Of a stretch of 64,000 nt of DNA, positions 29,770-33,485 are shown one piece after another. Source of the stretch: Leptospira sp. (GTDB lineage: Bacteria > Spirochaetota > Leptospiria > Leptospirales > Leptospiraceae). The first letter of the stretch is position 1; every line of letters starts with the position of its first letter. Under the pieces are notes generated by a model, which did not search any database, was not told where the DNA came from, and saw nothing but the letters and a program-made list of their open reading frames with translations. The position numbers and the translations under genes are program-made. The DNA lies in contig JAWXAQ010000030.1 of NCBI GenBank assembly GCA_034439575.1, positions 32,001 to 96,000 on the forward strand, given 5' to 3'.

Positions 29770-30279
29770 ATGGGACAACTTACAGCGACAATCAAAACAA
29801 ACAAGGGCGACATTCGCCTCACCTTATTTGCTGACAAAACACCAAACACTGTGGCAAATTTTGTGAACTTAGCGAATCGAAAATTTTATGATGGTTTGAA
29901 ATTTCATAGGGTCATCGCGGATTTTATGGTCCAAGGCGGATGTCCACTGGGAACTGGAACGGGTGGACCAGGTTATAAATTTCGAGATGAATTTTCGAGC
30001 GAACTCAAACACAATAAACCAGGCATTCTTTCCATGGCAAATGCCGGACCTGGAACAAATGGCAGTCAATTTTTTATCACACACGTCCCAACTCCATGGT
30101 TAGATGGGAAACATACTGTGTTTGGTGCGATCATTGATGAAACAGATCAAAAAGTTGTGGATGCGATCACTCAAGGTGACAAAATAGAATCCATAAGTTT
30201 TGATGGTGATACTGCTTCAGTATTATCGATCGCTCAAGCGAATGTGGATGAATGGAATCAAATTTTGGATAAAAAATAA
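29770..30279 (+). CDS. Cyclophilin-type peptidyl-prolyl cis-trans isomerase
   Basis: [41 protein letters not shown]. Real start is ATG 29770; the track's extension overlaps the rhodanese gene. Confidence 0.95.
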
Positions 30280-30343
30280 TTACTTAATTTTTAAATATTT
30301 CGTCTAACATTAGAGAATGGATTCATAATCATAGGAGTCTGTT

Positions 30344-30532
30344 ATGGCGAAAAAAGATAAAGAGTTCGAACAAAAAATAAAAATGGCTAAACAAGTTTCT
30401 CGTATACTTTTTAGCCACAAACCGACGAAAGTCAAACCTTCTGCAAAAATGTATTCCAGGAAAAAAAAAGAACTTCCTGGAATTTTTTTTATTTTACCGT
30501 TCCTAAATCTATATACGCACCATCATTCATAA
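30344..30532 (+). CDS. Small basic protein; candidate ArfA/BrfA-like alternative ribosome-rescue factor
   Basis: SD aggag at 30333-30337; 15 K/R in the first 42 aa; YSRKKK motif; hydrophobic tail; internal terminator before the stop codon. Confidence 0.6.
   Translation: MAKKDKEFEQKIKMAKQVSRILFSHKPTKVKPSAKMYSRKKKELPGIFFILPFLNLYTHHHS
30453..30490 (+). terminator. Intrinsic terminator lying inside the small ORF; may also serve the convergent VIT gene
   Basis: attccaggaa (30453-30462) / ttcctggaat (30474-30483), a 10-bp perfect stem, then a T8 run at 30483-30490. Confidence 0.75.
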
Positions 30533-33485
30533 TCACAAAACTTCTAGTTTCTACATCTACATTTTTATTCCCATCAAAACGTATGACTTGCATAGCACCC
30601 ATACCATAACCCATTGGACCTCGACTATAATAATGCGCTTCCAATTTATACGGAAAGGCTTTGGGATTTAAAATTCGAAAACATTCAGGGCCATAACCTC
30701 CAGTCAAATCAGCATACAAGGCACCACCGGATGCAAGTTCTTTGGAGCTGTAAAAAGCATGTTGCTTGTCTTTATCATAGATGTGAAAGTCAACATCATT
30801 GGCATCTGTTTCCCAAACTAAAATAAATCGTATTTCATTTCCCAATTTTTTAATTTTGATATTTTTTAATTTTTCAGGACTTGGTAATTTTTTGTCCTTA
30901 TCTATGTTTGATATAGAATATAACAAATCCAAATCATCATAAAAAATATCATGCACATTGCTAAATCGACTTGGGAAACTACGATTTAAACCTAAGATGA
31001 TTGTATCATAAGCTTTTAACCAATTTTGCGATTTCAAATAAGAGATAAATAACAAATGATAGGTGCTAGGATGGTCTGGCCTTTCGATCAGAGCCTTTTC
31101 AAAAGTATCAATTGCTTCATTGTACATAGCAATGGATAATAATTTTTCACCTGCCCATCTGCGAATATCAGCTCTCCTGGGAAAATAATCCACAAAGGAA
31201 GTATAAGACCTGACTGCATTTTTTCTATCTCCCAAAGCAAAATAACTGTCGCCAAGCGCAAGTAAGGCAAGTATATCTTCTGGCGACTCTTCCCGCCAAT
31301 CTTTCGCAAACTTTAAGGCTTTTAAATTTTCACCAGCATGAAGATAGGAATAAAATTTCTTTAGATTTCCTTGGTAGGGATCAATTTTTTCTCTTTTTTC
31401 TGTTTCATTCACATTATTTGCGTTAACGGGACGTGAATCCAAGGCAAATTGATTTCTAGTGGGTGGCACCACAGTATCAGTCGTAATTCTTTGCGGAACC
31501 ACTTCTTCATTTTTGATTCCTTCTGTGTCCGTGTTTACCTCCGCACTCGGAACGGCTAAATTAAGTCTGTCATCAGCAAATGAATCTTTCATTCCATTCG
31601 GGGCATTATTTACTGATTCAGTTTTTTTAGATTCTCGAATTGATTCTGATTCCTTTTGTTTTTCACTCTCCTGCCTCCTTCGATTATTATCTGCACGTAC
31701 TGCATCTCTTTTTTCGCGATTTTCTGGAGCCAAAAAATCATAACCGACTAATTCTTTTCTATTTAAAATCTCAATTCCACTAAGTCCAATAGTCATAATG
31801 TCTGTTAGGGCATTGCGAGTGATTTGAAATCTATCATAATCATCAGCGGTTTCTAAAACCAAAAAGGATGTGAGTGGACATTGAATACGATGAGCTGAAG
31901 AAAGTTGAATTGCTTGTAACTTCATCCCATTCGCAATATCTTTGTTTGTTTCCTTTTCTGCTATGTCCAATAAATTTTTAATTCTTGCGGCTGTTACTTC
32001 ACGATTTAACAACAAAGCATCCGTTGTAACAGGCATTAAATTTGAAATCTTTTTTCCATTGATACTAAGATTGATATCGGAAATAGATTTTGAATCTTTT
32101 ACCTCTCCAAAGATAGTGATTGGATCACCAGCTTGCAATACCCCTTCACTCAAAGACAGGTGCCAATTGGTATTTGTTAATTCTACTTTTGGCTCAGAGA
32201 ACACTTTTTGCCGAAGGTGTTTTTCCATTTCGGAAGTAGAGATATCACTGCTAAAACTAATGCCTCTTTCCTTCCCTGTCGTGAGTAAAATATCCAAAAT
32301 AGTTTTGTCTTTATAAGCTGAAGGAATCATAACATCTAATCGTTTAATCCAAGTTTGTGATTTTAGAATATTTTGAATTCCTTTTGGGGAAGTCTCACCT
32401 GCGGTCAAAACAGAATCACTAACAATAAGCAAACGAAACGATTTGTCATCCATCAATTTTGAAAGTTCCAAAAGCGCCGCACTTAAGTTACTGGAACCTA
32501 GAGGAGCAGTCTCTTTTAGTTTTTGGATGCCTTTCTCACCTGCACCATAACTAACAAGCGCTACATCAAAGCCAAAAATATATGAATCGTCTAAATTAAG
32601 CTTACCTAACAAATCCTCTAAAGTCCGGATTGACTTTTTGTAGGTAAGTGTAGAGGAAGCAGAGGTATCAAAGAGAATCACTAATTTATCAAGGGGAGCA
32701 TTTTCTTCTTCTGATTTACTAAAGGGAATCACTTTAATACCAAAATTTTTTCCATCCGAAGAAATCAAATTTTGACCTAACTTATGTTCAAAAAAAAAGT
32801 TTTTATTTGGTTTGTAATTTTTTTTATCAAGTGAAAAAATCTTTCTTGTGATCAGTTTCCCATCATTGTCCGAGTTTTGAGAATCTGTTTTTGATTGGTA
32901 TTCATCTGCATCATACATAACTTTCAATTTGAAATTTTCTATTTCAGGTAGCCCGAGTAATGGAAGCGAAACGCCAGTGCCGGCAGTGCTAAGAGCATTT
33001 GAATAAGAAATGATTAATTTTTTTTCGGATTTGGCAGGGATTGGAAATATCCTAGCACTAAATTCATTTCCGGCATCTGACTCAAGTAAGGCGGGATCTT
33101 GCTTTCTGTGCAAAAAATCTTCATAAACTCTTGTGGCTTTTTCTCTTTCTACAACTTCCCCCTCTTGCCATTTGTCTCCAATCATCATTGCAAATCTCGC
33201 CAAATTCGCATTATCTGGTAGTGTGATTCTAAAACGTCCTTCCCTCACTCGATCTTCTGGATTATAAAAACTCAGGCGAATTTCCGTAAAAACAAAAAAC
33301 CCATCCAATACGGTATTTGATTCATAAGATTTTAAAATGAGACCTGAGCCGTCCGAAGCAGTTAACGAAAGCGGTGATGCTAGATTTTCATCTATTGTCT
33401 TAATTTTGTTAGAAGAAAAAATTAAAAATGTGAATCCAATCATCCAAAGATAATGAATCTTCGCCATTTGTTTTGCACGGTTCAT
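30489..33485 (-). CDS. VIT + vWA-like + TPR + DUF2135 (YfaP-like) multidomain exported protein
   Basis: VIT (FYNPEDRVREGRF...DPALLE...RIFPIP), vWA-like FDTSAS, TPR helices, and C-terminal LVWETDANDVDFHI...GGYGPE. Confidence 0.75.
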   Translation of the reverse strand: MNRAKQMAKIHYLWMIGFTFLIFSSNKIKTIDENLASPLSLTASDGSGLILKSYESNTVLDGFFVFTEIRLSFYNPEDRVREGRFRITLPDNANLARFAMMIGDKWQEGEVVEREKATRVYEDFLHRKQDPALLESDAGNEFSARIFPIPAKSEKKLIISYSNALSTAGTGVSLPLLGLPEIENFKLKVMYDADEYQSKTDSQNSDNDGKLITRKIFSLDKKNYKPNKNFFFEHKLGQNLISSDGKNFGIKVIPFSKSEEENAPLDKLVILFDTSASSTLTYKKSIRTLEDLLGKLNLDDSYIFGFDVALVSYGAGEKGIQKLKETAPLGSSNLSAALLELSKLMDDKSFRLLIVSDSVLTAGETSPKGIQNILKSQTWIKRLDVMIPSAYKDKTILDILLTTGKERGISFSSDISTSEMEKHLRQKVFSEPKVELTNTNWHLSLSEGVLQAGDPITIFGEVKDSKSISDINLSINGKKISNLMPVTTDALLLNREVTAARIKNLLDIAEKETNKDIANGMKLQAIQLSSAHRIQCPLTSFLVLETADDYDRFQITRNALTDIMTIGLSGIEILNRKELVGYDFLAPENREKRDAVRADNNRRRQESEKQKESESIRESKKTESVNNAPNGMKDSFADDRLNLAVPSAEVNTDTEGIKNEEVVPQRITTDTVVPPTRNQFALDSRPVNANNVNETEKREKIDPYQGNLKKFYSYLHAGENLKALKFAKDWREESPEDILALLALGDSYFALGDRKNAVRSYTSFVDYFPRRADIRRWAGEKLLSIAMYNEAIDTFEKALIERPDHPSTYHLLFISYLKSQNWLKAYDTIILGLNRSFPSRFSNVHDIFYDDLDLLYSISNIDKDKKLPSPEKLKNIKIKKLGNEIRFILVWETDANDVDFHIYDKDKQHAFYSSKELASGGALYADLTGGYGPECFRILNPKAFPYKLEAHYYSRGPMGYGMGAMQVIRFDGNKNVDVETRSFVIMNDGAYIDLGTVK

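Follow-up and report, generated by a model that had tools for sequence, protein, structure and literature searches.

A small basic gene of Leptospira with a conserved hairpin inside its reading frame: a candidate ribosome-rescue factor of the ArfA/BrfA type

Why should a short gene carry, before its own stop codon, a hairpin of the kind that ends transcription? The question is raised by an open reading frame (ORF) of 62 codons followed by TAA as codon 63, found in a 64,000-nucleotide stretch of a Leptospira sp. genome (assembly GCA_034439575.1, contig JAWXAQ010000030.1, positions 32,001 to 96,000; hereafter “the window”, with positions counted from its first nucleotide). An earlier note, made from the letters of this DNA, took the ORF for a candidate rescue factor of stalled ribosomes, made, as ArfA and BrfA are, from a messenger RNA (mRNA) that ends without a stop codon. 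Comparison of the locus with its homologues leaves the structural part of this proposal well supported on sequence grounds: this is a conserved, coding, very basic small gene with a conserved hairpin before its stop. The proposed function is weighed below against four alternatives.

Six-frame searching gave one strong match per genome in 41/41 genomes of the genus, at about 50% identity. A profile of 24 genus sequences (A1), run against 114 Leptospiraceae genomes, found significant matches only in the genus (41/41) and in 3/5 genomes of one sister genus (E value about 1e-14), the remaining matches being noise-like, at E 6.5e-4 or weaker and in other genomic places. A broader profile of 94 sequences (A5) recovered 44/114 genomes at E up to 0.001 and none in the other 12 genera of the family, including 0/22, 0/24 and 0/8 genomes of the three largest. 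The earlier description of a Leptospira system therefore holds for the saprophyte-type genus and for these sister-genus genomes, but is too broad for the rest of the family. Copies in the databases are all named “hypothetical protein” and come from saprophytic Leptospira species.

The homologues differ in the manner of a coding sequence. Over the 22 gap-free codons up to and including YSRK, the entropy by codon position is 0.52, 0.24 and 1.10, and codon differences in frame are synonymous in 5426 cases and non-synonymous in 3588, compared with 1122 versus 8215 and 386 versus 8845 in the two shifted frames. Judged by this strong signature and by its conservation, the ORF is a real, translated gene, and not the unconserved or untranslated frame for which the earlier note had allowed.

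Its predicted product has 13 K and 2 R among the first 42 residues, and eight positions (T28, K29, K31, S33, K35, Y37, R39 and K40) are invariant in the 24 aligned genus sequences. An AlphaFold 2 model consists of a helix at residues 2-23 (pLDDT 85-93) and an extended basic segment at 24-49, with no confidence past residue 50 (pTM 0.39); this architecture, an N-terminal helix with a basic C-terminal part, is compatible with that of BrfA without being specific to it. Pfam and NCBIfam scans of the ORF found no family at E up to 10, and the GGQ/RF-1 domain was not found with Pfam. A complex prediction for residues 1-49 (alignment A1) with the organism's own release factor RF2 scored 0.00 and 0.01 against a mark of 0.32, which speaks neither for nor against binding.

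The hairpin is a perfect 10-bp stem whose 5' arm, ATTCCAGGAA, is made up of codons 37-40 (Y-S-R-K) and is separated by an 11-nt loop from the 3' arm, TTCCTGGAAT. Its centroid energy is -12.4 kcal/mol, and it is followed by seven T, or eight if the last base of the stem is included. The T run reaches codon 49; were transcription to end there, the RNA would encode about 48-49 residues, the last of them ...YSRKKKELPGIFF, and the in-frame stop lies 13-14 codons beyond this predicted truncation point. Residues encoded past the hairpin are hydrophobic (ILPFLNLY). What the earlier note had read from the window thus stands on every structural point: the 62-codon ORF with AGGAG ahead of its ATG, the 15 K/R within the first 42 residues, the perfect hairpin with T8 (30453-30490), which sequence and fold both bear out, the hydrophobic tail, and the length of about 49 residues for a stop-less product. 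With its 11-nt loop the hairpin was missed by a simple terminator scan, which accepts loops of up to 8 nt, and in an Rfam scan the stretch 29800-31000 had no more than chance matches, far below the gathering scores.

The ORF contains a hairpin ahead of its stop codon in 44/44 homologous loci (43 loci were parsed by script, and G007, which had been missed, and G031 and G034, which had been mis-parsed, were checked by hand, bringing the number to 44). Among the first 30 loci, 27 fit the motif pattern, and 27/27 of these have the 5' arm over the YSRK codons and the stop downstream. The stop is at least 10 nt past the G-C core of the stem in 40/41 parsed loci and 8 nt past it in one (G032); 32/41 have 5-7 T among the 8 nt after the stem. 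The hairpin of the sister genus is a different one, G+C-rich and a few codons later, but again inside the ORF, with 17 pairs in the full fold, a core stem of -24.3 kcal/mol, and T7 after it. ORF and in-frame hairpin are thus kept across the Leptospiraceae homologues whatever gene lies downstream, and a stop codon before the hairpin, which the earlier note had considered fatal to its proposal, occurs in 0/44.

Base pairing has been maintained while the sequence changed. In an alignment of 39 genus sequences (leaving out G007 and, because of their shifted hairpins, G032 and the three loci of the sister genus), pairing is seen in 81.4% of cells, versus 29-52% (maximum 52.3%) with the partners slid by 1-3 columns. 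The covariation score is 0.181, versus 0.095 in shuffles, and was reached by 0/500 of them; kinship alone can lift scores above shuffles, and the slid-partner controls retain kinship. Seven pairs have changed on both sides, and the five inner pairs are paired in 39/39 sequences; C-G occurs 31 times and A-U 8 times at pair 22:45, and A-U 32 times and G-C 7 times at pair 24:43. Changes in the 5' arm are synonymous (in the codon for the conserved Arg, and also in Ser and Tyr codons), whereas the matching bases of the 3' arm alter residues (LPG, HSG, LSG, DSG), so the 3' arm follows a requirement of the RNA and not of the protein. On this comparative evidence, selection acts on the hairpin as RNA. 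In the protein, conservation reaches as far as the hairpin, and the tails past it differ in both length and sequence, which suggests that the full-length protein is not under selection.

Table 1. Features of the window at and around the small basic gene.
Feature	Position	Strand	Basis
Cyclophilin-type peptidyl-prolyl isomerase; true start maybe at a later codon	29545..30279	+	Pfam Pro_isomerase, E 1e-45
GTCTAAC motif, possibly a promoter element	30302..30308	+	Conserved upstream in relatives
CATAAT, putative -10-like hexamer	30324..30329	+	Read from sequence
Shine-Dalgarno-like AGGAG, 6 nt before ATG	30333..30337	+	Sequence
Full 62-codon ORF including stop	30344..30532	+	ORF list; homologue in 41/41 genus genomes; coding signature
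Predicted translated portion, about 49 codons, if the mRNA terminates without a stop	30344..30490	+	Position of hairpin and T run; protein conservation ends here
Codons 28-42, TKVKPSAKMYSRKKK, signature basic motif of the family	30425..30469	+	Alignment; distant clusters
Hairpin, arms 30453-30462 and 30474-30483, loop 30463-30473	30453..30483	+	Sequence, fold, covariation
T7 tract, predicted U tract of an intrinsic terminator	30484..30490	+	Sequence; T-rich tails in most homologues
Codons 50-62 and stop, read-through tail, hydrophobic and not conserved; opposite strand carries the end of the VIT gene	30491..30532	+	Overlaps 30489..33485 (-)
Convergent 998-aa VIT and TPR protein, stop at 30489-30491	30489..33485	-	Pfam VIT, E 6e-22, and TPR families

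The motif of the gene and its relatives, TKVKPSxKxYSRKK, extends well beyond the Leptospiraceae. At E up to 0.001 an exhaustive search with profile A2 gave representatives of 138 clusters, and 11 of these reached 1e-10 or better. The proteins are 32-205 residues long and have differing N-terminal parts, all with [ST][KR][VI]KPS.K.Y.RKK near the C-terminus. Few of the clusters carry a name; those that do are called “hypothetical protein”, one of them from an Oscillospiraceae/Ruminococcaceae bin. Neither Pfam, run on 125 of the distant relatives, nor NCBIfam, run on 18, gave a match above cut-off. In gut metagenomes, a scan based on alignment A7 yielded 299 pattern matches, of which 91 were confirmed; of the 80 loci kept, 78 contain the motif ORF, reducing to 55 distinct loci. 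In 54/55 of them a strong hairpin sits within the ORF, starting a few nt past the motif, and this placement is solid. The gut hairpin is unrelated in sequence to that of Leptospira, has a median energy of -27 kcal/mol and is usually followed by T6-7; the stop lies at least 10 nt past the core stem in 17 loci and 7-9 nt past it in 21. A scan of species genomes with a smaller alignment gave 36 pattern-matching stretches, one locus of which was confirmed against the first sequence.

To our knowledge, arfA and brfA are the sole gene families with a conserved terminator or cleavage hairpin inside the ORF that serves control by transfer-messenger RNA (tmRNA), and both products recruit RF2. The release-factor-dependent back-up systems known to us are three: ArfA, in some gamma- and beta-proteobacteria; BrfA, in the Bacillus subtilis group; and ArfT, for which we know of no control by an in-ORF terminator. 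The stem-loop of arfA brings about premature termination or RNase III cleavage, the product of the resulting non-stop mRNA is repressed by trans-translation, and the tail of full-length ArfA is hydrophobic (PMC8012679). In brfA an intrinsic terminator within the coding region likewise yields a non-stop mRNA, with SsrA-dependent down-regulation, and BrfA has an N-terminal helix and a C-terminal part that lies in the mRNA channel (PMC6881298).

ArfA (YhdL, PF03889; E. coli and other gamma- and beta-proteobacteria) resembles the window gene in being a small basic protein with a hairpin before its stop, a hydrophobic tail past that hairpin and a basic C-terminal segment beside the truncation point; a segment LF....K.K...K.Y.RK.K also aligns in the same register, weakly. 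Even the surroundings are alike, since in E. coli the 3' ends of arfA and the convergent mscL share 4 nt, the same layout as that of the window gene and the VIT gene. (In the E. coli K-12 record, L077:4025-4650, the 3' part of arfA is annotated as “arfA-derived small regulatory RNA”.) The window protein differs from ArfA in showing no significant similarity, in lacking the KH motif, in an N-terminal part modelled as one long helix, and in taxon. With BrfA (YqkK, Bacillus subtilis) it shares the design of a predicted terminator in the coding region, and its modelled N-terminal helix would fit that of BrfA; it differs in the missing KH motif and in its signature motif, the two having been compared only through a PDB sequence search. 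For BrfA, a species-specific pairing with the release factor has been reported. ArfT of Francisella tularensis is very small, basic and helical and brings RF1 or RF2 to non-stop ribosomes (PMC8012679, PMC6514570), and its wider family consists of arrays of one to eight charged-helix repeats (PMC6514570); this repeat was not detected in the window protein with Pfam or NCBIfam at E up to 10. The C-terminal tails of SmpB and ArfB are also K/R-rich; they have no fixed structure in solution and detect an empty mRNA channel (PMC8012679), but they sit on a globular domain (the SmpB fold or the GGQ hydrolase, respectively) that the window protein lacks.

From the analogy with the design of arfA and brfA, and from the conserved basic motif at the predicted C-terminus, we infer that the window gene encodes an ArfA/BrfA-like rescue factor made from a stop-less mRNA, kept scarce by tmRNA and acting through a release factor; we put the probability of this reading at roughly 0.55. 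Transcription from a promoter just upstream would end at the in-ORF hairpin and its U tract, and in relatives with poor U tracts the hairpin may be cut instead. The RNA would then end inside the ORF, so ribosomes would run to its 3' end after about codon 49. While trans-translation works, tmRNA-SmpB would tag the product for degradation; when it is overloaded or lost, the untagged product of 48-49 residues would accumulate. Its basic tail would probe the empty mRNA channel of stalled ribosomes, and its N-terminal helix would help to recruit the release factor that frees the peptide, as with ArfA and BrfA. Termination or cleavage at the hairpin in vivo, tagging by tmRNA, ribosome binding and release-factor recruitment are all presumed steps of this scheme. 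The partners that it calls for are encoded in the genome itself, i.e. tmRNA, SmpB, RF1 (PVT) and RF2 (SPF). The RF2 gene (contig 35, L065:1390-2517, minus strand) is an uninterrupted frame of 375 codons, so the programmed frameshift of many bacteria seems to be absent.

A number of results weigh against this reading. By its own folding the window hairpin is not beyond chance (fold z -1.65; 14/200 shuffles fold as well), and its significance comes from comparison, because 44/44 homologous loci keep an in-ORF hairpin, with covariation. In many genus homologues just 4-5 of the 8 nt that follow the stem are T, and of the hairpin and U tract described in the earlier note the hairpin is found in all homologues, while the U tract, strong in the window, is weak in many of them. 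No similarity search reached ArfA with significance. Neither the protein nor the locus matched PF03889 at E up to 10, the sole match to this family in the whole genome lying elsewhere (E 1.28, 11.3 bits versus a cut-off of 25.5), and BLASTP against E. coli ArfA gave no match. Alignment of A1 with E. coli ArfA by hhalign placed residues 20-44 on ArfA 22-46, at E 0.052 and a probability of 1.0%; A5 (94 sequences) against 16 enterobacterial ArfA sequences (A4, a shallow alignment) gave the same register at E 0.16 and 0.4%. A PDB sequence search with A1 at E up to 10 found two unrelated weak chains and no chain of ArfA or BrfA, although the short BrfA chain of entry 6SZS (cited in PMC8012679) may not be in the set searched. 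The KH motif, described as the single sequence feature common to ArfA and BrfA (PMC8012679), is absent after YSRK in all 24 aligned genus sequences. The likeness to a segment of ArfA that the earlier note perceived thus reappears in the same register, but homology is not demonstrable.

The need for such a factor may also be questioned. The genome contains an ArfB-like ORF of 148 aa with an RF-1 domain, a GGQ and a K/R-rich tail (contig 33, 269617-269931; L067:1408-1854), so a second back-up is not required. E. coli also has both ArfA and ArfB, and with the ArfB-like gene and the window gene together this genome would have two back-up routes besides tmRNA-SmpB.

Within the wider family, the commonest gut form reads stem, T6, A, TAA, which places the stop only 7 nt past the core stem, and 16 further gut loci were scored “inside the stem” only since the fold extended the stem through the same T6-A-TAA. 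An RNA without a stop codon is accordingly clear for a third of the gut loci and borderline for the commonest form. One gut locus has its stop 0 nt past the stem, and one locus has no hairpin. A Bacteroidota member (of the ...SERHIAQIIRRKM... type, L085:8-142), which came from the species-genome scan, has a 6-bp hairpin with the stop codon in its loop; the in-ORF terminator is thus not universal among proteins with the motif. This member is convergent with a gene of 486 residues.

RNA data from a relative point the same way. They consist of assembled contigs at the homologous locus L081 of genome G003, where the hairpin is at 1595-1628 and the stop at 1654-1656, and where the U tract is poor. 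Contigs from RNA libraries bridge the hairpin in three runs from two studies: one run has a contig of 1200-1662 that bridges the hairpin, another has one of 1518-1731 that bridges both hairpin and stop, and a third covers the whole stretch; one contig extends 75 nt past the stop. Carry-over of DNA is possible in these contigs, their ends (1466-1468, 1518, 1662, 1731) are not readable as RNA ends, and the uncovered parts of L081 in runs X9, X11 and X16 are uninformative. At face value, some RNA (or contaminating DNA) reads past the hairpin in G003, which weighs against efficient termination there. Such read-through would be compatible with cleavage, as in E. coli arfA.

These data bear most directly on the best-placed of the alternatives, in our view an unlikely one, namely that the gene encodes an ordinary small basic protein read to its normal stop, the hairpin being a local, partly bidirectional terminator or a stabilising 3' structure. 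The contigs that bridge hairpin and stop and the weak U tracts of many homologues fit it well, as do those distant members that end a few residues past the motif, including the one with its stop in a hairpin loop. So does the neighbourhood of the window, where the hairpin is the obvious terminator of the convergent VIT gene: the TAA of that gene places the same hairpin directly 3' of it, and read on the minus strand the hairpin is then followed by ACAUUUUU. In the window it probably serves both genes as a bidirectional terminator. Yet ordinary genes have their stop before the terminator stem, and here the stem is inside the ORF in 44/44 loci of the family Leptospiraceae and 54/55 of the gut branch. 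This holds also where there is no nearby convergent gene, and the residues past the stem are unconserved. The VIT gene is the downstream neighbour in 5/43 loci and another convergent gene in 24/43, and in three loci a convergent gene ends 118-161 nt from the Tyr codon. The caution of the earlier note, that the hairpin lies just past the stop of the VIT gene, is therefore right as to position, but the hairpin is not a mere terminator of that gene.

Close behind it, and likewise unlikely, is the alternative that the product is indeed stop-less and controlled by tmRNA but has some other role, as a different ribosome- or RNA-binding stress factor that builds up only when trans-translation fails, for instance one that helps ArfB, resembles a hibernation factor or acts as a regulator. 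All evidence for the non-stop design fits this equally, and it is favoured by the absence of ArfA/BrfA homology and of the KH motif and by the ArfB already present. What speaks for a rescue factor instead is that the families known to use an in-ORF hairpin for control by tmRNA, arfA and brfA, are both recruiters of RF2 (PMC8012679, PMC6881298), and that the basic C-terminal motif beside the truncation point matches the layout of ArfA and BrfA.

Two further explanations were rejected. A leader peptide acting by attenuation, with ribosomes that translate across the hairpin setting the level of read-through into the gene downstream, is suggested by the overlap of a short ORF with a terminator hairpin and by the next long downstream ORF being on the same strand in several genus genomes (e.g. 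G022, G031, G034 and G035) and in the sister genus; it is very improbable, since in the window and most relatives the downstream gene is convergent, leaving nothing to read into, downstream genes differ between loci, and the motif is conserved as protein across phyla, unlike leader peptides. Least credible of all is a chance ORF over a bidirectional terminator, which the hairpin taken alone and the lack of a family match would permit, but which is contradicted by the in-frame coding signature, by one conserved copy in each of 44 genomes, and by 138 related protein clusters.

The window gene may be one of a widespread unannotated family of rescue factors controlled by trans-translation and marked by the C-terminal TKVKPSxKxYSRKK motif and an in-ORF terminator hairpin, present in saprophytic Leptospira, in gut Firmicutes-like and Bacteroidota bins and perhaps in phages, and maybe extremely diverged from ArfA; this extension we advance tentatively, as somewhat less likely than not. 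Were it true, release-factor-dependent back-up would be far commoner outside Proteobacteria and Bacillus than surveys state, and such factors could be found by the signature of their gene structure. A 2024 survey of more than 15,000 genomes has arfA in 0/108 Spirochaetota genomes (PMC11633108), and a 2021 review held that more small factors are likely, that they are hard to find by sequence, and that genetic screens are needed (PMC8012679). Here the conserved in-ORF terminator pointed to a candidate without any screen, and a distant family branch bears this signature too. Confirmation of the rescue role would add a fourth family of release-factor-dependent back-up factors, mean a second or third route of rescue in spirochaetes and gut anaerobes, bear on the expected reach of trans-translation inhibitors in such bacteria, and provide a general computational recipe (a basic small ORF with an in-ORF terminator) for finding further factors.

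In the published literature we found no description of alternative ribosome rescue in Leptospira, nor one under LEPBI_I2122, the locus tag of the L. biflexa homologue, though supplementary lists of the survey and of the ArfT and BrfA studies might name relatives. Abstracts on trans-translation and tmRNA in Leptospira concern Clp proteases and small RNAs, and those on ribosome rescue name no spirochaete factor.

Phage-borne relatives of the window family may exist. With a gut-type query, the phage collection gave one unannotated phage record from fecal samples, at 45% identity, and the plasmid collection gave none, so the family is not evidently a gene of mobile elements. Two distant members match Pfam DUF7230 (PF23876; short and mostly phage proteins) weakly over ..SKK.Y.RK.. 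(E 0.011 and 0.053, far below cut-off), a family to which the window protein itself has no match. A look-alike search in the Atlas returned only unnamed clusters, several of them mostly viral (Uroviricota), and a cluster named DUF7230 at 0.88 by features, all of which are leads only. In some gut loci (L091, L144, L146, L149, L159, L164 and L165) the frame stays open for 40-190 codons past the in-ORF terminator and runs into downstream sequence, so gene callers report very different protein lengths with unrelated tails.

On its upstream side the gene is preceded by a peptidyl-prolyl isomerase gene in most genus loci, as in the window, and in the sister genus both flanking genes differ. A GTCTAA(A/T/C)-like motif is present in nearly all of the 43 upstream regions compared. 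Its distance upstream is about 37 nt in the window and the nearest relatives, which also have a Shine-Dalgarno sequence, GGAG-like in G026, G033, G029 and G032; the Shine-Dalgarno sequence is absent in most other homologues. The CATAAT of the window was not listed by a promoter scan, which needs both hexamers. In most genus members the GTCTAA motif stands only 4-5 nt before the ATG, without a Shine-Dalgarno sequence, an arrangement compatible with a -10-like element and a leaderless mRNA. The upstream region of the sister genus has a perfect TTGACA, then TCTATA.

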